Of a stretch of 64,000 bases of DNA, positions 10,888 to 51,289 are shown one piece after another (within the stretch, counting starts at the first letter, position 1; the number at the start of each line of letters is the position of its first letter). The stretch covers positions 1,612,001 to 1,676,000 of the forward strand of contig NW_026250404.1 of NCBI RefSeq assembly GCF_024521635.1, given 5' to 3'. A program made the translations under genes and the position numbers. The notes beneath the pieces were generated by a model, which saw only the letters and a list, made by a program, of their open reading frames with translations, was not told the origin of the DNA and ran no database searches. Source of the DNA: Tricharina praecox (taxonomy: Eukaryota).

Positions 10888-13800
10888 CTAACTATCAATG
10901 TTGGCAATCATGCCAATCTCACGCAACATCGCCGTCTGCGAATCCTCAGGTCCCAGCTCCCTATCACTGTTGGCATTCATGCCAATCTCACGCAACATCG
11001 CCGTCTGCGAATCCTCAGGTCCCAGCTCCCTATCACTGTTGGCATTCATGCCAATCTCACGCAATATCGCCGTCAGCGGATCCTCAGGCCCCAGCTCCCT
11101 CCTTCGCCACAAACTAAACTCCTCCTCATCCACGATATCGTCTCGCGCTGCTCCCCCGCTGTTACTCCTCTCAATGAGCTGAATCAACCAGCCGAATTTC
11201 TCGAGCTGCTCTTGTCGATCATCATATTTAATATGGCGACCCTTAGTCGTAGGCTCCCGCCGCTCATCCGTAGCCTTGCTCGGTCCTCTATACTCGTCGG
11301 GGATGGGAATATCTCTTCCCTTGACTATGATTTGAAGGCTTAACCTGCTGGAAGAGAGAGGCACGAGGTGGGGGAAAGCAGCGGTCTACGTACTACTCGG
11401 CGGCTCTGACGCCGTGCCATCTTTCACCCGTTCCATCGTCTGCCTGACCACATCCAACACTGTATGGTCGGAGGAAGATAATCGGTTGACATCAGCACCC
11501 GCGCGAATCAGACATCCGCAGTGGTTCTGTCGACGAATATTACCAGCTGCAAGTTGCAGTGCCGTCCAGCCGTCTCCGTTCACTACATCCAGGTACAATC
11601 CCTCGCTGAGCTTCCGTCCTGTCCGTGGTACAAACTCCAGGAGAAACTCCAAGAGCTTCGTTTCCGGCTCCGAAACTGCGAAGTGAAGGAGTGTGTCACC
11701 AGAAACCGGGCGCGCGATCAGATGTTCGTCGTATTCCAAGAGGAGGTGAAGGAATGCTTCGTGGTGACCGACTGCGGCCCAAGCTGCGGGGGTCAACTCG
11801 TCCCAGAATGTGTCTCCAGCCAGATTCCACCAGTCGCAGGTGGCGTGGAAGTTCGCGCCCTGGGCGAGCAGCAATCGACCTGGTTCGAGGGAGCCATATG
11901 CTGCCGCTGTGTGTAATGGTGTGAATGTGCTCATATCCTGGGCTTCGATGTCTGCACCGAGCTCCAGGAGTTTCGCTGTGGCACGAGTGTTGTAACTTTG
12001 TATCGCGAAATGTAGCGGAGTCCTCCTGTCTGCACTTCGTTGATTCACATCCGCACCCGCGGCGACGAGGTCAACTGCTATTGTGTTGCTGCAGAAGAGC
12101 GTGCTTCGTGCCCACTGACCCAGCGGCGTCTTGCCATCTCCTGCGCATGTCGAGTTTCCACTACACCCGTGCCCGAGGAGGGCTCTGACAACAGTCTCGT
12201 TATGGTTTCCTGCAGCTGCTACAATTGGTATGTAATCGCGCTCTGAGTCACCTTCAAGCAATTCCGGCGCCCTCTCTGCAACGAAATCGATGGTTGCTAC
12301 TGTGGATTGACCAGCTCGTACCCCAAGGAAGCCATCGATAGTGTCTATGTGGTACTGCGGCAACATCGCCAGCCACCACACTGCAGCGCCTAGCCAGTCC
12401 AAACATTCGAAAGCACCAAGCTTTTCCAACTCCTGCAGAATCTCGGATGATTGCTGGGCAATCGCATATTCAATGGGCAACGAATCCGCCGATCCCTCGA
12501 ACGAGCACAAATCTTCCATTACATCCGCATGCTGAAGGAGATTCTTCACCGCCGCAAGGTTGTAAGCCCGAAATGCAAACGTTAGCGGCCCTCCGAGGGG
12601 GAATCTTCCGTGGATTTCAATGCACGGGTGGTCCCAGCCCATGTCGTCGTCGAGTCGAGCGCCGGCAAGGAATAAGAGGTTGGTGGTACGAGGGATGTCT
12701 GCCGTGTCAAAGGATATGATCCAGTGGATGGCGGAGTCGCGGATTTTTACGCCGTCGATGTCCAGTGTTTGCGCTGAGGCGCCGGATGCGATGAGAGTCT
12801 GGTGGTGTTAAGGGTTGGGAGAACAAACAGCAGTAGAGAAAGACATGCCTCCAGAACGCCTAGGTGCCCGCCTTTGCAGCACAGAACCAGCAGACTCTCC
12901 CCAAACTCGTTGCAAGCGTTTGGATCCCCACCGGCTTGTATGCAGGCTTCTGCAAGCTCCTTGTCTCCATATATCGCCGCGTTCAATAGGAGGTCGTCAA
13001 CATCATCTCTACCCTCAATGGGCTTTCCGGAACCGATGCACGCTGGAGGTTGATTCGGATAGAAATACTGGTTAAACCCACCCCTCGAATGAAAGTCCTG
13101 TCTCGCCTGGATATATAAATCCGCATCGATGGTCCGCAGGGTCTTTTCCGCCGTCCAGGAGCCCCACGCAACAGCTTCATACAGCCAATCGAGTTGCAAA
13201 TCTTCATCGATGTCGAGTGGACGGTTATGAGCCACATGCCATGCATGAACTACCGCTTGCGCGGGGAGATAATCCGCTTTTGCGGACTGCACGGCGGCAG
13301 ATAACATCCCATCGATATCCGTGGGGCCTCCCAAGCCGAGAGACCGTGCTAGAGCCAGCTGGAAGTATGTGCGGCCACGGGTAGGGCCGCGGGTGGATTG
13401 CGTCAGGTCCGTTATTATCTGTTGTTGTACGTCCAGCGGGATCTCATCCTCGTCTTGCCAGCCGAAGGTTACGTAGTGTGCGTCGCTGAGATATGTCTGG
13501 AGGCTGTGGTCTATTTCTTTTCGTGTGCGGCCGACTCTCGGAGGGGGCGGTGGGCTTCGCAGAGTGTTATCAATGGTTCTCTAGATTGGAGGGCAACAGA
13601 CGGCATACCTCATTTCGGAGTCCACTTCGAGGATGGTTTCGACCATGGAAAGTTCTGAGCACCGCTCCTCCGGGTTATATGCCAACAGCTGTCTACATGC
13701 CAGCTCGAGGACGGCTTTGAACTCCTCTGGTACATTCTCATCCTTCTGGATGAAATCAACCCCGCTCTGCAGAACACTCTCATCCTTCGCACTCCAGCAC

Positions 13801-14657
13801 TCCCTCAGTTCCTCGGCAAAAATATGCAGCAACAATAGACCTAGTGAGTACGCATCACATCTACCCAGCATCTCAGGATGTATCGGGTGTCTCGATTGAT
13901 CCTGCGTCTCGGGAGCATTGGTTATATCCGTGCCATAATACCTCGTCTGCCTATCAGTCGGCAACGAGTCCAGGAATATACACGAGCCGAAGTCGGAAAG
14001 TTTCGCCATATACGGTTGAGCGATATCCAAAACCTTTTCGCCTCGTACGAGCAGAATGTTATCCACCTTAACATCCCCGTGGATAATCCCCATATCATGC
14101 ATTGCCACGAGTCCGCGGGTCACGTCCAGTATGATTGAGTACTTCTCTTCGCCGTCAAGATGGGCTTCTGGACAAGATGGACCGAGGAGGCTGGAGAGTG
14201 TGCGCTCTGCATGCCGTACGACTATTGCCGGGGTGTGAAGGTATGGGGATCCAGGGTCCTCTATTAGATCGTAGGCAATGAGGTTAATGATATGCGGTTG
14301 GTCCCGCAGAGCGCAGAGCGCTTTAAGCTCTTTGTAGAGTTCGTTTGCTCTCCTCTAGACTATTTATCAGTCGGTGGAGATCACAATGTGTGGGGAGCAA
14401 ACCCGATCCGCAAGGCCACCGAGATTTATGTTCTTCACAGCGAGCAGGCCTTCGTCAGAATCGATCCCCTTACCGTCGTAGACGGTAAATTGGCTACCCG
14501 CACCGAGGACCCTGGTGCGATAACCGAAGTGTTCGGATTGGAGTGCGCGTGGGATCTCATGGTGAGTTACTAGCGTGAGGAAGTCGCTTACTGTGCGGAT
14601 CTCGAGAGGGTGAGTAGGAGCCGGTAATTTGGTCGGGGGACGGTTGGAGTGGAACAT
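10888..14657 (-). CDS. Protein kinase + SEL1-like + ankyrin-repeat protein (~1180 aa, 5 exons)
   Basis: Manual splicing (introns 14355-14402, 13555-13608, GC-AG 12799-12848 and ~11325-11393) gives one continuous frame. It contains Gly-loop GAGSQFTVY, AVK, alphaC ELKAL, HGDVKVDN, DFG, TNAPE and DAYSLG. These are followed by SEL1-like YFQLALARSLGLGGPTD...AKADYLPAQA and roughly a dozen degenerate ankyrin repeats (e.g. RTPLHFAIQSYN..LLELGADIEA, FTPLHTAAAYG, GDTLLHFAV, GWTALQLAA). The last acceptor site is uncertain. Confidence 0.85.
10892..11100. repeat. Three tandem 69-bp units in the kinase-ankyrin gene's 3' end
   Basis: Units start at 10892, 10961 and 11030 (CTATCA[A/C]TGTTGGCA[A/T]TCATGCCAATCTCACGCAA...CCCAGCTCC) and encode RELGPEDxxTAxLREIGMxANxD three times. 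Confidence 0.95.
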
Positions 14658-14902
14658 GTTTATTGAGGGATGAGGTTGAGGATAACAGTGCTGAAGTTGA
14701 CGGTTAAAGGTGAGATGTTTCCCCCGCTGTAGAGTACTATCTCCGTAGAACATCATGCACACTGCACGACTCATTGCTTTTTCACGAATCACATAAGATG
14801 ACAAGATCATGGATGATTGATTGGTGGCCAGCTCAGGGATATATCATTATTACTGCAGCGTCTCAAGTACCCCACTTCACTATCCAAATCTCCAGAAATC
14901 CC

Positions 14903-16558
14903 ATGGCCGAACTCGCTCTCGGCATAGCCTCCATCGGACTGACCCTGATCGACGATGCCATCCGAGTGCTCCAGTACTTCCGGCTTGTGCTGGCGGACTC
15001 CAAAAGCCTCGGCGCCGACGCCCGCAAGATCAGCACGCAGACCGCTGTCGAAACCGCGCGGCTGCAAGCATTCCGCGAGTTCCTCCATGACCCCGCCGGG
15101 ACGACAACTCGATTTGAGCTCCTGCCACAGATGCATCAAACTGCGGTTGTCGGCATGATACAGGAGCTCGATATCCTCTTTGCGGCGTATTCGGCCGTCG
15201 TGGTCAAGTATGGGTTGGACTTGGACGTCGATGTTGTGGGTAGGGTGGATGTGGCCGAGGAAATGGTCCGCCGGGCCACACTGACGAGTACGCAGTTGCA
15301 GCTTGGGGCGAGCTGGAAGGCGAAAGCAGCTTGGGGCCTGTTTAAGAAGAAGAATATTGAGGTGGCTGTGCAAAGGCTTGAGGAGTGGAATAATAAGCTG
15401 CAAAACTTCCTTCTGTGCGGTCTGTGTTTTTTGGATGATAAGAAATTGATGGAGTTGAGGGACGGGACTACTATGTAAGTCCCCTCTGCAGGTGCTACGG
15501 AAGGGAGGGTGGGGTTGTTGATGGGATTTCATGGCAGGGAGAAGTTGCGGCTTGCGCCTGGCCTGCGACTGCGTGCGATCATCACTGGCGCCAATGCCTC
15601 CACCGTCGATATCGTCGAAGACGGAATGGTTCTCAGTCCACCCGTGGCGAATAGCTGTCTCCGGACCGTCAATCACACTGGGGGAAAACCAGAAACCGTC
15701 TACGTAGAATACAAACCTTACAAACCTCGACGCGGGGCCACCCAGCCCTCCGATGCAATGATCCGTCGAGTCCGGGCCCTCGGAAACCTCCTCTGCCAGC
15801 CATCAGCTTCAGATGCCGGGTTTCACACGTTATCGTGCAGGTGCATCATCAAGGAGAAGGACCACAACGGAAGGGCATTGAATAGATACGCATTCCTCTT
15901 CCGTCTCCCGGACGGAAACAGTGGGGAGCCCATCTCCCTGTCCGCAGCGATCACAATCCATCACTCCCATCGTCCGACCCTCGGCCAGCGCTTCCAGATT
16001 GCAAAGACACTGGCAACAACAGTCTTCCAACTGCACTCCGTAGGCTGGCTGCACAAATCCATCCGCAGCGAGAACATTCTCTTCTTCGGCGCACCCGGGC
16101 AGATGTACTCGCAGCAGTACCTCGTCGGCTTCGAGTTCTCGCGCGACGAGAACGACACCTCGACCATGGAGCAGGACGACGCGCTGGAACGGAATATCTA
16201 CCGACACCCTGACCGGCAAGGCCCACCTGACACTCGTTTCTCTGTGCTACACGACATCTACTCCCTCGGTGTTATCCTGCTCGAGATAGGATTGTGGCGG
16301 CCGGTAATAGGCTTCGAGGCGTTTGCGGACATGGATCCGGATACGGTCAAGGAGAGGCTGCGGGAACATGCCAACGCAAGGCTGCCGCATTATATGGGCA
16401 GGAAGTATACACGGGCTGTGTTGGAGTGTTTGGACCAGACGCTGGTGGATGGCGATGTGGTGGCGCTGGGCGGTCTGGAAAGGTTCAGAGAGAGTGTGCA
16501 GATTGCGTTTTGTGAGAAGGTTCTGGGGGAGATTGAGGGCGGAGTTGCGTTGGAATAG
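14903..16558 (+). CDS. HeLo/HELL-like domain fused to a pseudokinase (MLKL-like architecture, ~530 aa, 1 intron)
   Basis: N-terminal hydrophobic helix MAELALGIASIGLTL, ETARLQAF and KAAWGLFKKKNIEVAVQRLEEWNNKL are HeLo-family-like. Intron 15475-15537. Kinase-fold motifs VYVEYK, LGQRFQIAKTLA, WLHKSIRSENILFF, LVGFEFSR, YRHPDRQ and DIYSLGVILLEIGLW; both the HRD and DFG aspartates are absent. Confidence 0.85.
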
Positions 16559-17305
16559 TGGTGGGCGGGCCGTCGTGATTCCGAACAGTCGCTTTTGAAC
16601 GTCTGTTTGATTATCGACTATCATCTATAGATCTGTCTTACGTCCGAGGATCTACATATGGGTTTCTGTGCTTTGCGAGTTTCTCGGCCCGTGAGAGAAA
16701 ATCACATTCATCGCTCGAATAACGAGCGATACCCTGTGCGCAATTCCAAGCAGAGCCAAACTTCCAGTCCAGGTTGTCTCGGAGACGTGGATAGTGTTAG
16801 TGAGACTCACGTTACTCTAAACCCACTATAGCCGACTAACCTAGTAAAGACTTGTGGAATTGTCGGTGATTGGTGCAAGGTATTGATGCTTTTGAACTGA
16901 TCGTGAAGATGAGGCTAGGTCTCTACCACAAAAGTAACAATGACGACGATAACGACGACTAGCCTATAGCGATATCGAGAATATCAACGGCCTGTCTAGA
17001 TTATGGCGACCATTTGCCCGATCTTTCTTGCGCGGACAGTTAAAACGCGACGTGCAAAATGGCTGTCCGGATGGAATAACGAGTGATGATAGGTGAAACA
17101 GTGACCGTCAAATTGATTATAATCGGGCTCCTCGACTATAGAACTAGGTACATACCTGTATTTGCGGAAGTGAACTCTATAAAACGAGATTAGAGAGTTT
17201 CCCTAGGCGGGCCTTAGGTTCCCATAACTTTCTCTCTTGCAATCACCCTGTCTGATGTCTCGGACCGACATGTGAGCCGGGTCTTGGCAGCCCGCGGACC
17301 ATACC

Positions 17306-19517
17306 ATGGCCACAAGTGTCCTCGACACATCACTCACGACAACACCCGCGCCAATGCCAGCAAAACGAGGCCAACCGGTAGTCGACATCGACACCACTCT
17401 CAAACGCGTATTCGGAAAGAGGTCTTTCCGATCTGTCCAGCGGGAGGTGATAGAAGTAGGGTTTTCACAATGCGGCAAAAAACTTTAATAACACGTGACG
17501 CTGATGATGTAATTAGGCGGCGCTGGAGGGTCATGATGTTTATTTGCAGGCATCAACCGGTAGGAAATACCCGCCTTTTTGTTGATGAAGCTGGCTGGAT
17601 GGGCAGTTGATGTGTGCGATGGGAAGGTCTTGGGAAGAGCCTGACCTTTCAGCTCCCCGCCGTGGTCGTGGACCATGGTACGACGATAGTTGTTTCCCCA
17701 TTGCTGTCTATCATGGTAAACAGCCCGCGACCTCTCTGCACAATCCGAAGGACGCTGAGGAATTTAGGCAAACCAAGTAGAAGCTCTCCTTGCAGCGGGA
17801 ATCAAAGCGGCAAAGTTGGATAGTTCCATGGACATGCAGGAACGCAACGAGATCTTTAGAGACCTGGAAAGCGGACGTCCCACGCTGCGACTGCTTTATG
17901 GTACATATAAATACCGTTCCATATGTACTGGTTAGTACTCTGGATCTGACTTGGCATAGTGACACCGGAGCTATGCACTACCCCCGGATTTCGCGCAAAA
18001 CTAGGGGTGCTGCACAAAGACGGAGAGCTGAATAGGATTGTAGTTGATGAGGCACATTGCATCTCTGGTTCGTGGCTTCGTTTCACTGGAGGCAGATGAG
18101 GATATGGGAGATGCTGATGAGTGGTAGAGTGGGGACATGATTTCCGTGCGGCGTTTAAACAGCTGTACTGGTTCAAGTGCGAGTTTCCTTCTGTTCCGGT
18201 AATAGTGAGTTTTCTTCAAAAAAGTGCGGTTGGTCTGGATAAGAGGCGGTTGATGGCTGATGAAATGGCGAAAGGCAGTAACTGCTACTGCTACTGCCAG
18301 GGTTCGAGAGGATATCATCAAGATCCTGAGACTACCGCCACCGCCGCAGTTGAAGATATATCTCACTCCAACATCAAGTACCTCCTGTTGCTGTGGTCCC
18401 GATGACTTGCGACGTGCTGATATCAGGGTTTTCAGGGTCAAATCTCCACTACGAGATCCGTTACATAAACGACAGTATCAACCCACTCGACGAGCTGGTG
18501 AAGTGGTTGACAGGTGTATACAAACGACGGAAGGCTCGGGACGGTGGGGCCGAGGAGAGGCATTCGGCGGTTTCGGGGTTGATATATTGCTCGAAGGTAT
18601 GCGTTGCTTGTGGTTTGTATGGAGTTACTCTGCTTATTGACGATTGGCTGCCCATAGAGACAAACGTGTGAAGATGTCGCCAAAGAGCTGCGCGGGCATA
18701 AGATTGGTGCTAGGTCTGCGTTGCACCCTGTTCCAAAAGACATTTATGTGAAGCTGACAGATATTTTGCAGACCATATCATGCAGGACTGAGCAGTGAGT
18801 TACCTCAAGGGAACCTTCCCTCGAGGTGATGACTGATCGTTAATAGACGACGAGAAAAACGACACGACGCAGAACTGGCTCCTCGACAAGCTAGGCTATG
18901 ACATAATCGTGGCTACGACGGCATTCGGCATGGGAATCGATAAGCCCAACGTATACCACCCTCTCCATCTAATCCCACAAAATGCATTTAACTTAAAATC
19001 AACAGGTCCGATTCGTCGTCCATTGGGGTGTCCCCAAGTCGTTCGAAGGGTACTATCAAGAGGCCGGACGTGGCGGCAGAGACGGCAACGCGGCCCGTTG
19101 CATTCTCTTCTACTCACGAGAGTCCCGGGACCGTACGGGATACCTTCTCCAGCTTGAGGCGAGTAAGCAACAGGGCGTCGGCGGTGGCGACGCGCAAATA
19201 CAAACGCAGAGCAAGCTGAAAAGCTATCAAGAGGTCCCTCCTTTCCTCTCTATCCTACTCTCGCTAGTCACTGACTACTATCTGTCGCCCCACAGCTGGT
19301 AAAATACTGCGAAAACACATCTACATGCAGACACCTGGCGATATCACGGTACTTTGGAGATGTCGAACCGCCGGAATGCGACTTTGCTTGCGACATCTGT
19401 AAAGACCGGAACGCGGTAGTCTCGGCGAAACGGAATGGCCTCGCCGCAGAGGAGTGGGTTAGTACTCAGAGGGAGACGAATATGGACTACTACGGTGGGG
19501 TTGATAGTTACGAGTAG
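17306..19517 (+). CDS. Short RecQ-family DNA helicase (helicase core + Zn-binding part of RQC); 13 exons
   Basis: Spliced motifs [95 protein letters not shown] and [15 protein letters not shown]. Confidence 0.92.
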
Positions 19518-25237: not shown

Positions 25238-27924
25238 CTATTCCGCCATCTCAACGTCCTCATCCTCTTCCTCGTCGTCTGCACCAATGAACGTAAGTTT
25301 CGTGCCGTTCTCACTAATCTGCCACACATCCAGCCCCTCGTACTCCTCTACACACTTGACCAACGCGTCCTCGGTGAATCCCTTTGCCAGAACACGCTCG
25401 CGGATGACACGCATGAGGACCTCGCTGCCCTTACCGGCCGCGGTGCGGATGATCCGGTAGATCTTGGAGGACATCGTCACGTCAGCACCAGTGTGCGAGT
25501 CGGTGTCGTACAGAGATGCCTTGGAGACTTCGATCAGACGGAGCGCCTCGTCGACGTCTTCCATCACGACGGTATCGGAGAGGCGCAATCGTGCCAGGGC
25601 CTGGGCCAAACGCAAGATACCTAGAAGGGTACGGGGCGAAGTGTGCGAGAAGTGCCTGGACTACAATTAGAAAGCATTCTGATGGGCGGAATTGGGGGGA
25701 TCTTACTTCTTGCCACCCTCCTCCTGCTTCCCCAGCTGCCGTAAACGAACATACGCCTGGGTGACGTAGTCCGCAACTTCCTTGGGCACGGTGGGACGGT
25801 GCTGCCTAGCCTGCGCAATGTATGCCCTCATCTCTGCTGGCGACAGAGGCTCAAAGTCCATCTCGGGGTGTCGGTTCTCCATGTGAACGAAGGTAACGTG
25901 GCGAGCAAGCTCCTCATCGTTCTCGCGAGTAGGGGTATCCAAGATCAGAAACAGGATGTCGAAACGAGAGAGAAGGGCAGCGGGTAGATTGATGTTCTCA
26001 ACGGGTGAGATCTTGGGGTTGTAACGGCCGTAGAGGGGATTGGCGGCTGCAAGGATCGATGTACGTGCGTTCAGTGAAGTCGTGATACCGGCTTTGGAAA
26101 TCGAGATGGTCTGCTGTTCCATGACTTCGTGGATAGCTGTACGATCCGAGTCGTCCATTTTGTCGAACTCATCGATACAACAGATACCATTGTCGGCCAG
26201 AACTAGGGCACCTCCCTCCAGCACCATCTCGTCTGTGACGGGATCCCGCATGACCGCAGCAGTCAAACCGACTCCCGAGGAACCACGACCAGAAGTGTAA
26301 ATACCTCTGGGCGCAACCTTGGTGATGTACTTGAGTAATTGCGACTTGGCCACACCGGGATCTCCCATGAGACAGACGTTGATATCACCACGAATCTTCA
26401 TTCCATCGCCCATTTCCTTGGTCACACCACCGATGAGAAGAAGCAGAAGACATTTCTTGACATCTTCGTGGCCAAAGATTTCTGGTGCGATCGAACGTGA
26501 AAGTGTGTCGTACAAGTTGCCGTGGCTGCGGAGCTCCTCGAAACGTTGCCTGGTCTTCGCATCAAGACCGACTTCATCATACTGCTTCTTGTGCTGCTCA
26601 GCGTGTTGCAGCTCAAGGTAGGTATCCGTCAGCAACCCCGCCTTGATGGCCTTAAACCCGGTGTAAGGTGTCGGCAAGAAGATTCCGGCCATATCGACAA
26701 TGTCACCCGGATTGACGGTACGGCACAGCTCACCGTGAGCCTGAATTGTAAGACTGCGGGGTATGTGACCGACGGGCACTTGTTCCGCCAACTCCTGAAT
26801 CTTGATTTCCTGGAAGGCCAGGAATTTCGAAGCACGAGTGGATGGAAAGAGCTGTCCCCTGGCTTGGTTGTCCTGGCACTCTTTCGACGGACAATCAATC
26901 ATTGGTGTAAAAGACTTTGTCTTGATCTCCTGGAAGATTTCGCTTCCGCATCGATCACATGTGTATGCATTGACAATGACGGCCGGTTTGACGTCCGAAA
27001 CTCGAGTCGCAATACCCCGGACAGTTATGAGATGTCCCAAATGTTCACCACGGACCTGGCGCACCGCCAGTGCTTTGTTTCCGGAGCCGCTTGGGTGTAG
27101 GGGTTTGAAGAAGACCTGGTATCGGCGGGTCAACTCGGCGGGGAAGTACTGAGGCTGGCCATCGAAAGCCGCCGAGCCATCCTCCTGCCGAGTCTCAGCG
27201 GCAGCATTGCGAGCGCGGCGCTGGGCGAGGATAATATCGAGAACATCGTCGTTATATCTTGAGGACGTCAGCCTGGGAGTGCAGCGCGACAAAGACACAT
27301 CATCGGGGGTCGTACGTGGAATCCACTGATGTTGGCGGCATCACAGCATCGATCGCTCTCGAGAAGATGTCGATGTAGTGTGCAGTGTTCTCTTGTATCG
27401 ACTTGACCAAGCGAAGGGACTCTGGACTATTTGCCTCGTACTGGAGCATCGTCAGACCCAACCCTCATCTTTAGTCCGGGTGATCAACGCACCTCCTTCA
27501 GATCCTCCAAATCGATGACAACGGATGGCCGCTCACGGTTCGCGATTTCCTGGAGAAGCTCCATGTACTTGGGCTTGAGTTCTGGCTCTGGTTGCCGTTG
27601 TCGAGGAGCTCTCTGTGCCTTCCTCCCGCCACGACGCCGCGGCGTGTCCTGAATTTCTTCCTCATCATCGACCACCTGCAGATTGGATAGCGCATCGCGA
27701 GCGGCTTCTTCGGTGGACCGTGTGGATTTGAAACTTTTTAGGAAGTCCTGGAATGCCGCTACAACAACATTTACTTGTCAGCTATCGTGGTTCCGCATGT
27801 CCCCTGGACTGACGTCCCTCCAATTGCCACGCCAGTCTCTTTGGGAAGGGTATAGTGGCATGTGAAACAACGCACCTTGTTGCTGATCATAATCGATCCC
27901 GATGTCAATGACTGGAAGAGCCAT
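25238..27924 (-). CDS. MCM7: DNA replication licensing factor Mcm7; multi-exon
   Basis: Zn motif [27 protein letters not shown], Walker [21 protein letters not shown], arginine finger LSRFD and C-terminal VLAKGFTE. Confidence 0.95.
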
Positions 27925-28640: not shown

Positions 28641-31600
28641 ATGCCTCACGCCGCCTCCGCCAACCGCCCTCCGTCAACACCGGCAACAGTGTTCCTGACT
28701 CCGCTTAAGAACTGCCTGCTGAACCTCCCAGCCTCACTCGTCTCAGTGCTCGTCTCCCAGAACACCCCCGCCCAGAATGTAGTCGTCGAGATTACCTTCC
28801 GCGGCTCGACCATGGGCAGCGCTTCGTCCTCGCAGCGCACAGCGTACGCGGGATGGACGGGAATGCAGAGCAAGCGGAAGCCGACGGCTGGCACGCCCAT
28901 GCGCGCCGGCGAGGACGCAGTAATAGAGATGGATCCGGCATTGGCAAAGAACATAGGAGTGACAGAGGGGTCTAAGGTAGCAACTGATCTTCACGCCATG
29001 GCTCAATGTTATAGTTCTAAGCTTGTGAAAACTAGGTATCCATCCAGATACACGTTGATCCGCCGGCAGCGCACACCCTCCACATTGAACCTCTCACGGC
29101 GAGCGATTGGGAGATCATCGAATTGCACGCGTCATTCCTCGAGCTCAACTTGCTATCCCAGATCCGTTGTGTGACCACCGCCCACCCGCTCTCGGTGTAC
29201 CTCTCGCCCACGTCGACCGCGTCTATACGGCTGACGAAGGTGGAGCCCGAGTCCGCGCTGTCTGGCCCTAACGGCTTCGCCAAGATCTCTCCCGACGCAG
29301 AAATCATTGTTGCGCCGAAGACCAGACAGCGGCGGCCTAGTAGGGGCGCAAAATCGACTACGAGTACAGCTCGGACCTCTACGAGGAGAAGACCTGAAGG
29401 TGCCTCCGTGTCTACGGGAAAGACGGCGCTATTCTTGAGGGGCGTGGTGCTGCCGACTGTGCGGCATGTCCCAGTTGCGGACGAGGAGCCCGATCATGAG
29501 GAGGAGAATGACGAAATGAATGGTGGGGGCCGTGGTTTCACGGTGTATCTGGACCCCAGTGCGATCGCATCAAAGCAGCTGCGGAACACGTCGAAGGTTG
29601 TGGTGTCGATTGTTCGGCCGCCGTCGCTGCTACCTCCGAAGGACCCTTCGCAGCAGCAACAGGAACAACAGGGCGACAAGGACAAGGACAAGAAAGATTC
29701 CGAGATTGCCGCGGCGACAAAGATAGTAGCCAACGTCCGACCGTGGGATTTTGCGCCGGATGCGAAACATGTAGCACTCTCCCGTCTTTTGGCAGCTTCC
29801 CTCCATCTCTTCGAAGGAGAAGTCGGTCCCATGGTGCGCCTTGAGGCCGCGCTGCAGCCGGTTCCTCACAAGATACTCGCCAAGGTCAAGATACATCCGT
29901 TTACGAAGGGGGGCAAGGAGGACGGCGTGAGATGGGGCGGAGGAACCAAACGATTGGAGGAAATGGCCATCTCTCGAATCCAGGACGTATTGGGACCCAA
30001 ACGGCTGCGGAACGGCACAAATGCGATGATTGAGGAGGACTTGGCTTCTGTTTCTCCCGGCGAGGGTATTCTAGAGGGCCCGCTTACCGATGGTATGGTG
30101 CTTCCGGCGATCGAGGACTCGCCGATTGCCTCCGGTGGAATAATCAAACTCGAGGTCACAACGATCGAGGGAGCCGATGCTTCTCAAGCACCGTTGTTGA
30201 AATGGTTCATGGCCGGTGACAAGAGACCTACTATCGAGATTGCCTCACATATCCCCAAACCACCGGCGCCAGCGGTTCCGGAGACAATGTTTGTGCCGGA
30301 TGAAGAGGACGAAGTGGTTGGGGTAGATGCTGTTCTCCAATCGGTTACCGAGAACCTTCTTTCTGCGTCGTCGGTGCTTTTGGCTGGTGCTCACGGTTCT
30401 GGTAAAACCTCCGTCGTGCGGTTGATTGCGAAGAGGTTGTCCGGCGCACCGCACTTTTACCGGGTAGTTGACCCTGGGACGCTCTCTAAACTCGCGGATG
30501 AGCGAGTAGCTGTGGTTAAAGAGAATCTCATCCGGTGGTTGTCGGAGGCAACTTGGATGGCAGGCAAATCATCTCGCAGTATTCTACTCCTGGATGATCT
30601 GGACCGGTTATGCGCCACTGAATCCGAAAATCAGGACAACTCGCGGGTTCGACAGCTCGCAGAAGTTGTTGTTTCCACTATCAAGAAATTTACAGCTGGC
30701 AAATTGGTGGTTGTCCTCGGTAGTTGCCAGGCAAAGGAGAGTCTCCACAGTCATCTGGTTAGCACCCATGTTTTCCGGGAAACCATCGCCCTGAAGGCCA
30801 TGACCAAGGAGGGTAGACGGACGGTACTGGAGGGAATCGTAGCTACCCGTGGCGGCGTGCATCCGAGTCTGGACTTCCGGTTGATTTCAGCCAAAACCGA
30901 GGGATACATGCCAGGTGATCTCGCGCTCCTTGTGGATCGTGCTCGCCACGAAGCTGTAGTTCGACTGGTCGATAGCTCCGACTCCACGGTCGTTAATTCG
31001 CTGGTGCTGGGACCCGAGGACTTTGATTCCGCACTAGCCGGCTTTGTCCCTGCTGGTCTCCGCGGTGTCAAACTACAGACCTCCGGAGCTGGCTGGAAAG
31101 ACATTGGAGGTCTGAAGGAAACACGAAAGATCCTCCTTGAAACTCTCGAATGGCCAACCAAATACGCGCCGATCTTCGCCTCCTGTCCCCTCCGCCTCCG
31201 TTCCGGTCTCCTACTCTACGGCTACCCGGGTTGTGGAAAGACTCTCCTTGCGTCCGCCGTCGCCGGCGAATGCGGCCTGAACTTCATCTCAGTCAAGGGT
31301 CCCGAGATCCTCAACAAGTACATCGGAGCCTCCGAAAAGTCCGTGCGTGACCTTTTCGAGCGCGCCTCGGGTGCAAAGCCGTGCGTGCTGTTCTTTGACG
31401 AATTCGACTCGATCGCTCCGAAGCGTGGACACGACTCTACGGGTGTTACCGACCGTGTGGTCAACCAGATGTTGACGCAGATGGACGGAGCCGAGGGATT
31501 GGACGGCGTCTACGTCCTTGCCGCCACCAGCAGACCGGACTTGATCGATCCCGCGCTACTACGTCCCGGACGTCTGGATAAATCCTTGATCTGCGATCTC

Positions 31601-32242
31601 CCCAACGAAGAGGACAGACTCGACATCATCCATGCGGTCGGTGGCAAGGTGCACTTCGATACCGACGTGGATTTGGCAGAAATTGCGAAGAGGACGGAGG
31701 GATACAGTGGGGCGGATTTGCAGGCTGTTGTGTATAATGCCCATCTTGAGGCGGTACAGGGTGTTATCAGCGAGGAGATCAAGAAGAAGGAAGCTATGGA
31801 GGAGAAGCCGGCGGATGATGAAGAAGATGTGGAGTTCTTGGAGTTTGTCTGGGGGGATGCCAAAGGGAAGTCGAAGGGCCTCGACCGCAGGGCCAAAGGG
31901 AAAGAGAGGGGGTTGCTGGTTGAGAAGGTATGCCACTCGCTCACTACACTCGCTCATACACTGCTAACTGAGATATAGATCCAATCCCTTAAATCCTCTA
32001 AATCCGGTAAGAAGTTCACCGACAAACCAGCGGGCGGCGACGCAGAGGAAGGAAAGAAGGAGGATATCTTGATCAAATGGCACCATGTCGAGACGTCGCT
32101 GCAGTCCACCCGACCCAGTATCTCTCAGCAGGAGCAGATCCGACTCAAGAAGATTTACGACGAGTTTATAGGCGCGCGCAACGGCGAGATGCCAAGCGGA
32201 CAGGGTAGCACCGAGGTCGGTGGGCGGAGCAGCTTGATGTAA
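28641..32242 (+). CDS. PEX1: Peroxin Pex1 AAA+ ATPase; 2 introns
   Basis: N-terminal LKNCLLNLPASLV and EPLTASDWEIIELHA. D1 motifs GAHGSGKT/LLDDLD; D2 motifs LEWPTKYAPIF, GYPGCGKT, FFDEFDSIAPKRGHDSTGVTDRVVNQ. Ends GGRSSLM*. Confidence 0.95.
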
Positions 32243-45200: not shown

Positions 45201-47987
45201 GCGGTCGGTGATGGATATGACGGGTAATGGTGGGATTCATGGCCATAATATAGTAGTGCAATGAGCAAAAATGATTGGATGTTTCGATGAATAGCAGAGT
45301 CTCCAAAGGTCTTTGAAGTTTGGAGTGCGATCACTCGTGATGACGTCGACGCGCTATGTACAGTGCCCACTCGGTAAAAAGCGGCGAGACGGATGCGGGG
45401 AATTGGAATTCTAGAACAAAATACCATGCACGCACGCATGACGGCGGGCATGATAAGCGAAGGTGACGAGACGTGCACAATTCCGGCGGCGAATTTGCGG
45501 CGACGACAACGCGGGGATGCATACCGGCGGCGATGGAGAGCGTACACACCGTACTATGTATTCTGCGTTTCACCACGCTGCCAGTAACTGTGAAAGTACC
45601 CAAGACGCCTGTGCAGCAGATGCATGTGATCCCCACGCTCTAGAACATCAGGATCGTTCTGACGATCGATCGTTTGGAGGGGTGTGCAGTGGGACTGTGG
45701 AGTGCGCGCAGTGGGTGGATGAGTCCGACACGTCATGAACCGTTCCTCTTCCCTTCCTTCTCCCTTCCTTCTGCCTTCCTTCTCATTTCCTTCTTCCTTC
45801 CTTCTTCTTCCCTTCCTCCTCGCTGGCGATGCTGCCGGTGATGAGTTGCTTTTGCCACGATCTAGAGCGTCCTCGCTAGCCAGTGCACTGTGCCAGTAGA
45901 GTGCTGAATGTCCGTGGTGAGATGAAACAATGCGGCATGGCGATGTCATAATTGCCGCTCCTTTCTTGAAACAAAAGGTAGTCCGTGCGCTAGGCGTGCT
46001 GCGTGCGTTGTTCTGGAAAGAAGACCGAAGGGAAAGAAGGAAAGAAAGAAACAAGCAAACCCACGCCAATCTCGCCAATCGAGAGCGAAGTTCCACCCCG
46101 CCTTCCACGGAGGTCCATGGGTGGGCTATGGGTGGATACGAAGGGGAATTGATGCTGCGGGCAGATGAACTCGTGAAATGAACTGGACTGAACTGAACTG
46201 AACCGGGCCAGCTGAGCCACGGAGGGTCCAACCCAATCCACTGCGCTTGCTGTTTTCCTCCTCCTCCTCGTCCTCTCTCCCGAGACATCAACGGACCAAC
46301 ACAATCCTCCCCCATTACCTACTACTTTACCGTACTATATACCCACATCGCTGCTACTGCTGCTGCATACCTCCTCACCCGCCGCCCCCTCCGGTCTCCA
46401 GTGCTCGTGTAGCTACAGTACAAGTATCCCACCTCCGCCCTTTATCCCCGAAATCTCCACCCCCTCGCTTCTCCTCCTCATTCTCCGCTTCCACTCGCCC
46501 GCCGCCGCCCACCATCCGCCACCCGCCCCGTTTCATCGCCCCCGTTTCCACCATCTCGCTTCCTCATCCCCCCCGTCCCCGCCTCCACCACCCCGCCCCG
46601 CCCCTCCTCGTCCGCCCAATCAGCCAGAATACATACCATCCCTGCCCTCGTCTCTTCCTTGCATCATTACACTTTCTACCGTCCAGTGCCTCGCAGCGCA
46701 GCCAACGACAGCAGCAATCCAGCCATCCAGCAATCCAACCAGCCAGCCAACCCGCGCCTAGGCTGCTCTACCTTACCTCGCTCTCCGATTAACCAGTGTG
46801 TGCTAGTAGAGTGCATAGACTGTTTCGCTGCTTCGCTGCTTGTGCTGCTCCACCACCACCACCCTATCCAACCCCTCCCCTCCTTACCCTACCACCCATA
46901 ACTACATCCGTCCCAGCGACGACCACCCACACCCCAACCCATCAACGAAGCTCGAATCCCTTTCCCGAAACACCCGAGAGCATCAACTCCCGCGATTCAT
47001 TCATACCATTCATACCAATCTGAGGTAGCAAACTCATCATCCTGAGCGAAGGAAGAAGACGACGGACACTGGCAACCGGAGCATACCTATCCCGTACGTC
47101 ATCCCTTGATAACCGCTTTCCCGCTTGTTGACAGCTGCAAACCGTCTGTGGCGGCTGCCTGCTGTATCCTGCATAACTTATGCCTGACTGAAAGTGGGGG
47201 AGGGAACATTCTAGTTCGGGTCTATTCCCCGTCTGACTCTGCTTTCTCCACACATCGTCCTACCAGCAACCCTTATTGCTCCTACCTCCTCCTCCTCCTT
47301 CATTCCTTCACGCAGCAACAACAGCAGCGGGAACTTCTTCAGAGCTCGAGGGATTGGTGCTTGCATTCTTTACTTCCTTGAGCGGCATCGCGCAGGTCAG
47401 CTATAGCTGTCTTCGTGTTTGCTCTCCCAGACGGACAAAGGAACCGACAACCTTTATCGCACTCCCACCTACCCGCCACTAAAATAAGAATACGCGGGAA
47501 GCTTGCAGCAAGAGTCCACAGCTGCTGGCAATCACCATCTGATCTTCGGGAACGACGGAATTCTCGGATACCAGCTTTCTCTTTTGTTTCCCATCGGCAG
47601 CAGCAAACTGGTGGGTTCTAGTCATCCATTCCTCTGTTGGTTGCTGCTGCTGCACGTGCGCTCTGACTGTAATTCTGACTCGCCTTCTGCTGAGCAGATT
47701 GATCCTTCGGCTAGCTGATTTCTTTGCACACGAAACATCGACCCAGCGGATATATCTACACGTATGTTCCTGTTGATTCTTCCTACTCCCCACCGAGTGG
47801 TGGTGATATTGCATGCACGGTAGCAATGGTTCTAAAGTTGAGTCTCACACCTAGGTCACTACCAATTGCCTCAGAGCCGCACCTGTCGCCATCCCTCTCG
47901 GCATCGTCGTCATCTCTGCACGACTTAACTTGGGTCCGAACACAAAGCCTCCCACCTTACCTCTTCGGCGCAGAAGAACTAGCAACC

Positions 47988-49481
47988 ATGTCTCTTCCGG
48001 CAGCATACCTCCAAGAGATCGATATCCTCAACCAGAGGATATCCCAAGCACAACCGGCGGATATCGTACAGTTCTGTGCAAACTACTTCAATGGTCGCCT
48101 CGAGTCTGAGCGCGTGGAGCATCTCTCCGCTACCATGTCCAATCCATTCGCAACAGTGGGCTCCGATACCTTCCCCGGCACATTCGGCGGAGTAAGCAGC
48201 TCAGGAGGATTCGACGGTGCTCGGGATGCCATCACCGAAGAAGAGGAAGATGTGCACAGTCCCACAACACCCAATTTCAGGCCACAGTTCAGCCCGCAGT
48301 TCAGCATGGGCGGATCTGGCGGCAGCGGTGGAGGCGGTGGCGGTGGTGGAACTGGGCGTCGCGATCATTCCCCTTCTTCCGGCGGAAGAGCCAATTCGCG
48401 TGGTCCTCCTCGTGCTGCTGGATCTTCGTTCCTCGCCCCTTCGCTCAATGCCCACCTCTCGCCGAATGCTGGACAGGATTTCCCCTCCAACTACAACAGA
48501 AACCGCCGAACCTCTGTGTCCGCCGAATCATTAATCCCAAATGCGTCGAATGACGAGTGGTCGCCACCGGTGCACGCCAAAACGCCCGACCAGTTGGCCC
48601 GTCTGAAAGTATCTGTTTCTGGTAACTTCCTGTTCACCCACCTGGACGAAGAGCAGTTCTCTCAGATTCTGCTTGCCTTGGTTGAGAAGCCCATCCCCAA
48701 CAAGGACATGCGCGTCATTACCCAGGGTGACGTCGGAGATTACTTTTACATTGTTGAGAGGGGCGACTTCGACATCTACGTCAACTCGATGGGACGGATG
48801 ATGCCCGGTCCCGACGGGTTGGGAAAGAAGGTCAACTCGATTGGACCCGGCGGTTCGTTCGGTGAGCTGGCGTTGATGTACAATGCTCCCCGTGCGGCCA
48901 CTGTTGTCTCGACGACTCCTCAGAACATTCTCTGGGCCCTTGATCGAGTCACCTTCCGACGCATCCTGATGGAGAACACCTTCAAAAGACGACGGATGTA
49001 TGAGGCCTTCCTCGAGGAGGTTCCCCTGTTGTCGCCGCTCGTGGCCTCGGAACGCTCCAAGATCGCTGATTCCCTCGACACCGATACTTACGAGCCGGGG
49101 GCGACCATCATCAAGGAAGGTGATCCTGGCGACCGGTTCTACTTCATCGAGCAGGGTGTTGCCGAGGTCTACAAGAGCACGGTTCCCGGTGGTGGCTACG
49201 TCCGCACCTTGAACAAGGGAGATTACTTCGGAGAGCTAGCGCTGTTGAACGACGCCCCGCGAGCTGCCAGCATCGTGGCCAAGACCAAGGTCAAGGTGGC
49301 ATACCTGGGCAAAGCAGGGTTCCAACGATTACTCGGACCTGTGGCGGACATCATGAGGAGGAACGACCCTCGGCTAGGCGAGAGTGTCGACCCGCTATCC
49401 GGTGGTGCTCCCGGAGGACTCGACGGCGCGGTTGATCCCATCCAGGAGGCGGCCGGCAGGGGAAGGCCAGTGGAGGTATAG
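47988..49481 (+). CDS. BCY1: cAMP-dependent protein kinase regulatory subunit; intronless CDS
   Basis: D/D domain (QPADIVQFCANYF), inhibitor site RRTSVSAES, and two CNB domains (FGELALMYNAPRAAT, FGELALLNDAPRAAS). Confidence 0.96.
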   Translation: MSLPAAYLQEIDILNQRISQAQPADIVQFCANYFNGRLESERVEHLSATMSNPFATVGSDTFPGTFGGVSSSGGFDGARDAITEEEEDVHSPTTPNFRPQFSPQFSMGGSGGSGGGGGGGGTGRRDHSPSSGGRANSRGPPRAAGSSFLAPSLNAHLSPNAGQDFPSNYNRNRRTSVSAESLIPNASNDEWSPPVHAKTPDQLARLKVSVSGNFLFTHLDEEQFSQILLALVEKPIPNKDMRVITQGDVGDYFYIVERGDFDIYVNSMGRMMPGPDGLGKKVNSIGPGGSFGELALMYNAPRAATVVSTTPQNILWALDRVTFRRILMENTFKRRRMYEAFLEEVPLLSPLVASERSKIADSLDTDTYEPGATIIKEGDPGDRFYFIEQGVAEVYKSTVPGGGYVRTLNKGDYFGELALLNDAPRAASIVAKTKVKVAYLGKAGFQRLLGPVADIMRRNDPRLGESVDPLSGGAPGGLDGAVDPIQEAAGRGRPVEV

Positions 49482-50148: not shown

Positions 50149-50867
50149 CTACCTAGCCCCCGCCCTCTGCCTCTCCAATATATCCCTCCTGACCCCCTCT
50201 GTAGCCAGCTCCACCTCCAGCACGCGTCCCACGGCCTTCTTCCAGCGCACCTCGAGCCGGCCCATCTCGTCGCGCACATCGACCTGCGCCCCCTTGCGCT
50301 CCTTGTTGCACACCTCCGCCTCCGTGCGCAGCGCCATAAGCGATTCCTCGAGCTGCCGCAGCAGCTCCTCCAGCTGCGAGTTGTGCAGCAGCCACGCGTT
50401 CCGTCCGTACGAAGAGAGGAGCGAGAGGTTCGTTAGGCGCGTTGAGAGGTGGGTCGAGGATGTGTACGCTGCGGAGAGGGCGGAGGTGGAGGGGGTGCTG
50501 GTGCTGGGGGAGTCGGGGGTGAAGGTGGATGGGTCGTAGCGTGAAAGGTCGACGCCGTTTTCGAGCGGGAGACCGGATGCCACGCGGCTGAGCTCGAGGG
50601 TCATCGCGGGCGTGAAGGTGCTGGGTAGGAGTGTGGGGAGGGACGGGTGCGGTGTGGACGTGGAGGACGAGGCGAGGGCAGAGGTTATTAACGACGTGAT
50701 CTGGGCCAGCTCGGAGGCGGTTGGGGCGGGCTCGATGTCTAGTTTTGTATTAGCAACGCGAAGGGAAGGGAAGGGGGGTGAAGGGGTGGAGGGTGGAGGG
50801 GAATGGAGGGGGGGAGGGGAGAGCAAGTACAGGGCAGGGAGTCGTGCGAGGCGATTATGAGCGGCAT
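50149..50867 (-). CDS. SPF27: Pre-mRNA splicing factor Spf27/BCAS2 (Cwf7); 1 intron
   Basis: MPLIIASHDSLPYIE, GVDLSRY, RLTNLSLLSSYGRNAWLLHNSQLE, NKERKGAQ and LEVRWKKAVGRVLEVELA. Confidence 0.88.
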
Positions 50868-51289
50868 CGTGGGGTTCGTGGGGGTGGTTCGTGGGTGGTT
50901 CGTGGCGGTGAGCTGTAGATGGAGTATCTACGGGACGGGAAGACGCGTGCAGTTGATGGTTGCTTCCTGTGTTCGCCACGCCAAGAGCGCGTTGGCCGTT
51001 CGGCTATCTAACTAAACTAGTTTCGGCCTTCAGCCTTGCGCCCGCTTCGTTGGGTTGGGTTGGGGCCAGCCCAGACCGTCCATACACGGGCATGTAGCAT
51101 AGAGTACTTAGCGATGACGGGGTGTCTTGTCTCGGTGTGAAGTCCCTCCGTCTCAGCTTCTCAGCCCCAAGCTTTGGTCTGGATATTTTTTACATATATA
51201 TAACAATGGGCGTGCTCGTTATCGGGGAATGGAACTGCTGCTGCCGATATCATACACTTCGAACTATTTAGGTACGCAGTTGACACGAG

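Follow-up and report, generated by a model that had tools for sequence, protein, structure and literature searches.

A HeLo–Pseudokinase Protein of Tricharina praecox and Its Divergent Ankyrin-Repeat Kinase as a Candidate Phospho-Switched Cell Death Pair

MLKL-type executioners of cell death are established in animals and plants; the link of fungi to necroptosis rests on amyloid-controlled HeLo and HELL domains. The question raised by the locus described here is whether a fungal HeLo protein may instead be switched by a kinase acting on a pseudokinase domain. The window that we analyzed is a 64,000-nt stretch of the genome of the fungus Tricharina praecox (contig NW_026250404.1, positions 1,612,001–1,676,000), and all positions below are those of the window. 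It carries, at 14903–16558 (+), a gene for a protein of 530 amino acids (aa) with an N-terminal HeLo domain and a C-terminal DUF7580 pseudokinase domain, and, head-to-head with it, a gene for a kinase with ankyrin repeats. We propose that the 530-aa protein is a phospho-switched HeLo executioner driven by this neighboring kinase, a reading to which we give an even chance of being correct. It builds on what the analysis establishes: the architecture of the protein, its lost catalytic residues, the conservation of S399, K364, R393, and K250, an intact and expressed partner, and the recurrence of a co-inherited gene pair.

A HeLo Domain Joined to a Degenerate Kinase Domain

The segment singled out in a first-pass annotation of the window, 16052–16170 (+), translates to HKSIRSENILFFGAPGQMYSQQYLVGFEFSRDENDTSTM, identical to what had been written there, and is contained in an open frame at 15479–16558 (+). 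Upstream, the open frame 14714–15478 (+) ends at GTAAGT; the 63-nt intron 15475–15537 was first predicted from sequence and then confirmed by RNA contigs. These contigs come from two public runs from two studies (X1 and X2), whose RNA label is a guess, and we took them to be transcript-derived because they carry six canonical splice joints. The gene thus delimited has two coding exons and encodes 530 aa (spliced length computed):

14903..15474 (+): exon 1 of the HeLo–pseudokinase gene, ATG at 14903; encodes the HET-S-type HeLo domain
15475..15537 (+): in-frame GT..AG intron of 63 nt, skipped exactly by the X1 and X2 contigs
15538..16558 (+): exon 2; encodes the linker helices and the DUF7580 pseudokinase domain; stop codon TAG at 16556–16558
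14658..14902 (no strand): interval of 245 bp between the divergent start codons at 14657 (−) and 14903 (+); presumably a bidirectional promoter

Contig coverage of exon 1 is unbroken from 14830 (X1) or 14912 (X2) to 15474. A further GT..AG joint of 122 nt at 14710–14831 (+), seen in X1 only, is best read as an intron of the 5′ untranslated region, and the HeLo transcript would therefore start upstream of 14709 and overlap the 5′ end of the partner gene. Exon 2 is matched best, at 100% identity, by a T. praecox (Pezizomycetes, family Pyronemataceae) protein of 409 aa labeled "hypothetical protein." This public model (P0002) starts at an internal ATG and has an intron at about 15240–15296 not seen in the RNA contigs, and for these two reasons it is without most of the HeLo domain and gives no HeLo match in Pfam. 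The RNA-supported product is the 530-aa protein and not the public one of 409 aa.

Exon 1 passes the gathering threshold of the Pfam HeLo family (PF14479; E 1.7e-9, 38.2 bits where 23.2 are required) and shares 46% identity with the N-terminus of a full-length homolog, P0006. A profile of 47 family members matches the HET-s/HET-S HeLo crystal structures 2wvq, 2wvo, and 2wvn at E 1.6e-9. Upstream of the pseudokinase, a HeLo domain was found in 29 of 56 metagenome loci at E ≤ 0.01, and 22 of these matches lie above the Pfam cut-off. HeLo is described as a pore-forming toxicity domain in passages of two publications (PMC3689799, PMC12881547), and a passage of the second, a review, is our source for the link between HeLo and MLKL's four-helix bundle (4HB).

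The order of domains can be followed in the full-length AlphaFold2 (AF2) model of P0006 (60% identical; predicted local distance difference test score, pLDDT, 82.4; predicted template modeling score, pTM, 0.85). Long N-terminal helices, forming a helical bundle, are followed by three short linker helices (181–212) and a kinase fold; the fold search barely probed the HeLo part of this model, with the kinase domain filling the list of results. The amyloid patterns [IV]Q[IVLC]G and N.G.Q.G were not found in the 530-aa protein, and its C-terminal 339 aa fold in the AF2 model as a kinase domain and not as a prion-forming motif, which sets it outside the HET-S-type amyloid-controlled proteins.

Exon 2 passes the Pfam threshold for DUF7580 (PF24476; E 1.5e-8, 35.1 bits, cut-off 27). 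It also matches PK_Tyr_Ser-Thr at E 4.5e-5 and scores 19.5 bits against Pkinase, under the cut-off of 31.7. The AF2 model of exon 2 (pLDDT 86.8, pTM 0.89) has a protein-kinase fold, with BRAF as best match in the VIA fold comparison (Z 21.1, root mean square deviation 3.5 over 257 residues). The family to which it belongs comprises 3395 clusters at 50% identity with E ≤ 1e-30, and 5200 with E ≤ 1e-10. The motif positions that matter in what follows are these:

16052..16075 (+): degenerate catalytic loop HKSIRSEN, aa 363–370, with the HRD Asp replaced by Ser
16127..16135 (+): GFE in place of DFG, aa 388–390, followed by the near-invariant R393
15713..15715 (+): K250, equivalent of the beta3 "VAIK" lysine, in VEYK; K in 97 and R in 12 of 112 aligned homologs

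The HRD-Asp position (S365) holds Ser in 105 of 120 homologs and Asp in one, and Asp is found there in 0 of 66 dereplicated metagenome relatives. At the DFG-Asp position (G388) Gly occurs in 110/120 and Asp in 5/120, with the following Phe and Glu (E390) present in 116 and 112 homologs. Around these sites H363 (119/120), S368 (118/120), N370 (95/120), R393 (118/120), and the residues Y-R-H-P at 412–415 (118, 120, 113, and 120 of 120) are retained, as is K or R at K364, the HRD-Arg position (104/120). The position of K250 is K or R in 109/112, and E248, two residues earlier, is Glu in 107/112. The G.G..G pattern of the Gly loop was not found in the 530-aa protein. Because these counts hold among 120 homologs, the degenerate motifs are traits of the family and not products of chance. 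The first-pass description of a pseudokinase with MLKL-style substitutions (HKSIRSEN and GFE) therefore stands, the HRD Asp, the DFG Asp, and the Gly loop all being absent; as judged from its sequence, the DUF7580 domain falls outside the active eukaryotic protein kinases and is catalytically dead.

The likeness to MLKL is most direct when the single sequence is compared with all PDB chains. In this phmmer search only five matches were obtained at E ≤ 1e-3, all of them MLKL (mouse 4m68, E 3e-6, and 4btf; rat 6vbz; human 6lk5 and 6bwk), and the next family, tau-tubulin kinase, follows at 0.015. The GFE of the query aligns with the GFE of the mouse, rat, and human chains, and HKSIRSEN with HGKIRSSN of human and HRNISSSS of mouse MLKL. 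The strings given for human MLKL in the first-pass annotation agree with the PDB alignments, in which the chains read "lhgkirssnflv" and "GFELRKTQ..", and T357 and S358, cited there as targets of RIPK3, are named as MLKL phosphosites in PDB titles (8slz, 6bwk).

Searches with a profile or a model drew in a wider circle of kinases. The family profile against the PDB gave IRAK4 (7e-7) and MLKL (1.5e-6) nearly level, and then LIMK1, IGF1R, and CLK1. Foldseek with the exon 2 model against the pdb set returned a generic TK/TKL fold, with MLKL at ranks 21, 33, and 43. VIA placed RAF, MET, MerTK, CTR1, RIPK2, and JAK pseudokinases at Z 19–21, and MLKL was not among the top 50 entries that it listed for this model. 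For the full-length P0006 model, a wide VIA search independent of Foldseek found rat MLKL at rank 24 (Z 17.9, the top match having Z 19.9), and the look-up in the ESM Atlas gave generic kinase clusters only. As far as sequence and models can place it, the DUF7580 domain belongs with the TKL/TK-like kinases and shares the unusual substitutions of MLKL, a likeness that may stem from common descent or from convergence.

A Conserved Serine in the Activation Loop

Between GFE and Y-R-H-P lies the part of the domain in which MLKL is phosphorylated:

16154..16165 (+): activation-loop residues D397-T398-S399-T400; S399 codon TCG at 16160–16162, a conserved candidate phospho-acceptor

The first-pass annotation had treated D-T-S-T as a group of activating phosphosites; of these residues only the middle serine is conserved: S399 is Ser in 97, Thr in 22, and Phe in 1 of 120 homologs, that is, Ser or Thr in 119/120. 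The flanking threonines do not hold up in the same way, T398 being Thr in 7/120 and T400 Thr in 63 and Ser in 19 (82/120 together); D397 is Asp in 86/120.

A HMMER alignment relates these residues to MLKL. The 6bwk chain, a human T357E/S358E mutant by its PDB title, reads GFELRKTQEEMS and aligns with GFEFSRDENDTS of the query, so that E395 corresponds to the Gln before the two phosphosites, N396 to T357, D397 to S358, and S399 to S360. With D397 at the position of S358, the fungal protein thus has a fixed acidic residue where MLKL is phosphorylated. In the mouse MLKL chain (GFELSKTQNSIS) the two serines align with D397 and S399; by the chain offset we take them to be S345 and S347. The activation loop is the least confident region of both models, with pLDDT 53 for block 201–210 of the exon 2 model and below 50 for 410–416 of P0006.

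In ordinary RD kinases, the residues at the HRD-Arg and R393-like positions bind the phosphate of the activation loop. It is plausible that S399 could serve as a phospho-acceptor whose phosphate would dock on K364 and R393.

The Partner Kinase and the Recurrence of the Gene Pair

The neighboring gene (14657–10888, −) is arranged head-to-head with the HeLo gene, its start at 14657 being separated by 245 bp from the HeLo ATG, and its spliced frame is open over 1182 aa:

14657–14403 and 14354–13609 (−): partner exons 1 and 2, active-looking non-RD kinase domain, separated by the 48-nt intron 14355–14402
13554–12849, 12798–11394, and 11324–10888 (−): partner exons 3–5, conserved linker region and ankyrin repeats; stop codon at 10890–10888
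13555–13608 (54 nt), 12799–12848 (50 nt), and 11325–11393 (69 nt) (−): remaining partner introns, seen as CT..AC joints on the + strand in X1 and X2

The raw frames hold in-frame stops at 14369–14355, 13583–13581, and 11388–11386. Three of the four very short introns (48, 54, 50, and 69 nt) contain such stops, and the X1 and X2 contigs skip all four. We therefore rejected the possibility that the partner gene is broken, every stop lying inside an intron that the RNA contigs skip. One X1 contig spans both genes, and both genes of the pair were seen as spliced contigs in the 2 runs from 2 studies.

The partner matches Pkinase (E 2.8e-17) and Ank_2 (E 8.7e-29) in Pfam and carries the full motif set of an active kinase: GAGSQF at 52, AVK at 73, HGDVKVDN at 177, DFG at 206, and APE at 232. 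Because HGD replaces HRD, it is a non-RD kinase. Among 27 aligned partners E98, H180, D182, K184, N187, D204, and F205 are invariant. A profile of these 27 kinases finds its closest PDB relatives in a JAK-type kinase, LRRK2 (5.9e-34), CTR1, ULK1, MLK1, and Roco4, at E values of about 1e-34 to 1e-30, and no RIP kinase was among the 60 PDB matches listed; the partner C-lobe alone gave no PDB match at E ≤ 1e-5, and the profile search was used in its place. The core pattern of the RHIM was found neither in the partner nor in the HeLo–pseudokinase protein. Partner kinase and pseudokinase recognizably share a common fold (hhalign probability 97%).

A search for longer homologs of the partner kinase gave three proteins, none of them the window's own annotated product; relatives in Trichophaea hybrida (1343 aa) and Sphaerosporella brunnea (1215 aa) have the same kinase-plus-ankyrin layout. 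Between the kinase and the repeats, a stretch of about 240 aa (12750–13580, −) is conserved in nine loci; Pfam matches it only toward the C-terminal end, with ankyrin repeats at about aa 197–247.

To see how far the pair extends beyond T. praecox, metagenome contigs were scanned with the pseudokinase alignment; clustering of the 80 loci obtained at 95% nucleotide identity left 66 groups, and pairing was counted in the 35 groups having at least 3 kb upstream. In 19 of these 35 groups, a homolog of the partner kinase lies head-to-head on the opposite strand, no more than 3 kb from the pseudokinase match; it is also present in four groups with shorter flanks and lies downstream in five. As a control, kinase high-scoring segment pairs (HSPs) numbered 30 in the 337,865 bp within 4 kb of the pseudokinase and 1 in the 283,257 bp beyond 4 kb, an enrichment of about 25-fold. 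HSPs that reach across the motifs show H-[G, rarely C/A/S]-D-x-K-x-x-N in the partners, with DFG present in nearly every case. Of 27 representative loci, 21 have ankyrin repeats after the kinase and on its strand, and several of the remaining six end at a contig edge. The neighboring active-looking kinase to which the first-pass annotation had pointed is thus present, has an intact motif set, and is a conserved partner across metagenome loci.

For 20 loci, the distance matrices of kinase and pseudokinase correlate with a Mantel r of 0.856, a value that 0 of 5000 permutations attained; pseudokinase distances among paired loci go up to about 0.7. Both genes have therefore been inherited together over deep divergence, which is not in itself a sign of co-adaptation.

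DUF7580 also occurs behind domains other than HeLo. N-terminal domains were scanned for in 27 of 76 longer homologs, and a Peptidase_C14 (caspase) domain precedes DUF7580 in seven of these (P0125, P0129, P0130, P0132, P0133, P0142, and P0169), which belong to several named ascomycetes, among them Hymenoscyphus, Hypoxylon, Xylaria, and Cladophialophora. In another six of the 27 (P0173, P0177, P0181, P0182, P0193, and P0194, all metagenome gene calls) it is preceded by an active-looking non-RD kinase with HHD-x-K-x-x-N and DFG. The likeness of these fused kinases to the HGD partners is weak: they score 30–49 bits, whereas the window's own partner scores 322. With N-termini as varied as HeLo, caspase-like, and kinase domains, DUF7580 behaves as a C-terminal module behind exchangeable effector domains, and at the level of sequence the caspase and kinase fusions fit a role for it as a regulatory domain.

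The wider surroundings of the pair in the window are ordinary housekeeping genes:

25706–27340 (−): MCM helicase
29036–31975 (+): PEX1-type AAA ATPase
47715–49478 (+): PKA regulatory subunit
50152–51003 (−): BCAS2

The pair therefore does not lie in an obvious accessory or repeat-rich region. Nearer to it, open frames within 17276–19517 (+) may, to judge by their motifs, be pieces of a RecQ-type helicase; a 101-aa piece from this interval gave no Pfam match at E ≤ 1e-5.

A Proposed Kinase-to-Pseudokinase Switch and Its Alternatives

In the mechanism that we propose, the pseudokinase would keep the HeLo domain in check as a phospho-switch. The partner non-RD kinase would sense a trigger through its ankyrin repeats and phosphorylate the near-invariant S399 in the activation loop; by docking on the basic pocket retained in K364 and R393, the phosphate would reorder the loop, and the reordered loop would free the HeLo domain, leading to membrane damage and regulated cell death. 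Four points of this scheme are inferred: that the partner binds, that it phosphorylates S399, which way this acts, and that cells are killed.

Several points weigh against this proposal. MLKL does not stand out in the profile and fold searches, and the equivalent of human S358 is Asp and not Ser, so that any switch must differ from that of MLKL. The argument from a basic pocket at K364 and R393 draws on general knowledge of kinase structures. No head-to-head partner was found in 16 of the 35 groups with enough flank, and pairing is therefore common and not obligatory. The Mantel correlation is what would be expected for any linked, co-inherited genes and derives in part from close pairs, and the metagenome loci are presumed to be fungal.

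The alternative that survives best, although we think it fairly unlikely, reverses the sign of the interaction: The partner kinase would keep the executioner off, either by constitutively phosphorylating S399 or by binding through its ankyrin repeats, and loss or inhibition of the kinase, for example through a pathogen effector, would release killing in the manner of a guard or a toxin–antitoxin-like system. A conserved head-to-head pair with a shared promoter region and joint expression is what such restraint would produce, tight linkage being typical where one product restrains a dangerous other, and the Asp at the MLKL activating-site position (86/120) could make the protein "pre-activated" and in need of restraint. 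The 16 of 35 loci without an adjacent kinase speak against it, since such loci would be hazardous were the kinase an obligatory antidote.

It is unlikely that the two proteins form instead a signaling scaffold, in which the pseudokinase would be an allosteric partner of the active kinase and the HeLo domain merely a membrane tether. Their common fold would suit this, as would the fusions of an active kinase to DUF7580 in 6 of 27 longer homologs, which recall tandem kinase–pseudokinase proteins; a simple tether is harder to reconcile with an N-terminal domain that matches HET-S HeLo, a pore-forming toxicity domain in the passages cited above (PMC3689799, PMC12881547), or with the caspase domain, another death-type effector, as an alternative N-terminus of DUF7580.

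More doubtful still is an allorecognition pair, in which mismatched alleles of polymorphic linked partners would kill fused cells (heterokaryon incompatibility). Fungal incompatibility is known, from a passage of the review (PMC12881547), to involve HeLo proteins and linked two-gene systems, and ankyrin repeats could provide variable specificity, against which stand the conservation of the pair across very divergent loci (pseudokinase distances to about 0.7) and its position among housekeeping genes. Allorecognition concerns the trigger and not the mechanism, and is compatible with the proposed phospho-switch. Finally, that the domain is not dead, acting through atypical catalysis or nucleotide-dependent switching beside a functionally unrelated kinase, is very improbable: The conserved H363, N370, K250, and E248 would suit nucleotide binding, but the family as a whole lacks the Gly loop and the two catalytic Asp residues, and the neighboring kinase is about 25 times as frequent close to the gene as in the far flanks.

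The closest parallel to the proposed phospho-switched pair is vertebrate MLKL with RIPK3. In both executioners a helical bundle of the membrane-attacking kind forms the N-terminus and a pseudokinase the C-terminus, with linker helices between them; both have lost the HRD Asp, read GFE for DFG, keep a catalytic-loop remnant H-x-x-I-R/S-S-x-N, and conserve a hydroxyl residue in the activation loop, with RIPK3 as the activator in one case and an active kinase as the candidate activator in the other. They differ in that the fungal protein has Asp at the S358 position and its conserved Ser at the S360 position, and in that the fungal genes are adjacent and divergently transcribed. The fungal partner in turn differs from RIPK3 in its ankyrin repeats and HGD loop, in the lack of a match to the RHIM core pattern, and in a profile nearest to JAK, LRRK2, CTR1, ULK, and MLK kinases and not to RIP kinases. 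RIPK4/ANKK1 and LRRK2 have a kinase-plus-ankyrin architecture; they are like the partner in the order of a TKL-like kinase and ankyrin domains alone, whereas the partner has the HGD loop and the conserved region of about 240 aa between kinase and repeats. The Pfam family DUF7580 has no assigned function, and is read here as a pseudokinase switch with a conserved Ser, a partner kinase, and three types of N-terminal effector (HeLo, caspase-like, and kinase).

Plant MLKLs (AtMLKL1–3 and wheat Pm13) also combine a HeLo-type N-terminus with a pseudokinase, a likeness by description, taken from passages of a preprint (10.1101/681015). There, the activity of plant MLKL is modulated by activation-loop serines, a phosphomimetic serine boosting killing, and the plant and animal proteins are considered likely convergent by the authors; the passages concerned mention no adjacent partner kinase, whereas the fungal protein has one. 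The fungal executioners HET-S and HELLP, with their NLR partners, share the HeLo family PF14479, but the 530-aa protein has a pseudokinase in place of the C-terminal prion-forming motif, the partner is an ankyrin-repeat kinase and not an NLR, and the proposed signal is phosphorylation and not amyloid templating. According to passages of the 2025 review, fungal death pathways are often clusters of two or three genes, with an executioner laid out beside a putative sensor bearing repeats (PMC12881547).

One sentence of that review (PMC12881547) is the sole mention that we found of fungal HELL or HeLo domains fused to a kinase or pseudokinase. In the full-text literature searched, with subscription papers and supplements outside its scope, the term DUF7580 is absent and a description of the kinase–ankyrin/HeLo–pseudokinase pair was not found, although one may be in print. 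New here are the intact partner kinase, the recurrent gene pair, and the single candidate phosphosite S399.

A wider interpretation, which we offer tentatively and hold to be on the unlikely side, is that fungi have a compact two-gene necroptosis-like module, its kinase sensing a danger signal, that would share ancestry with RIPK3–MLKL, that phospho-switched killing by HeLo/4HB domains would be older than the split of animals and fungi, and that DUF7580 may be a general phospho-switch behind death effectors, be they a HeLo pore former, a caspase-like protease, or a kinase. Whether such signaling exists outside animals and plants is a long-open question, and a candidate activator, a candidate phosphosite, and a defined gene pair make kinase-to-pseudokinase death signaling in fungi directly testable. 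The work also has a bearing on the question of a single or a repeated origin of MLKL-like proteins.

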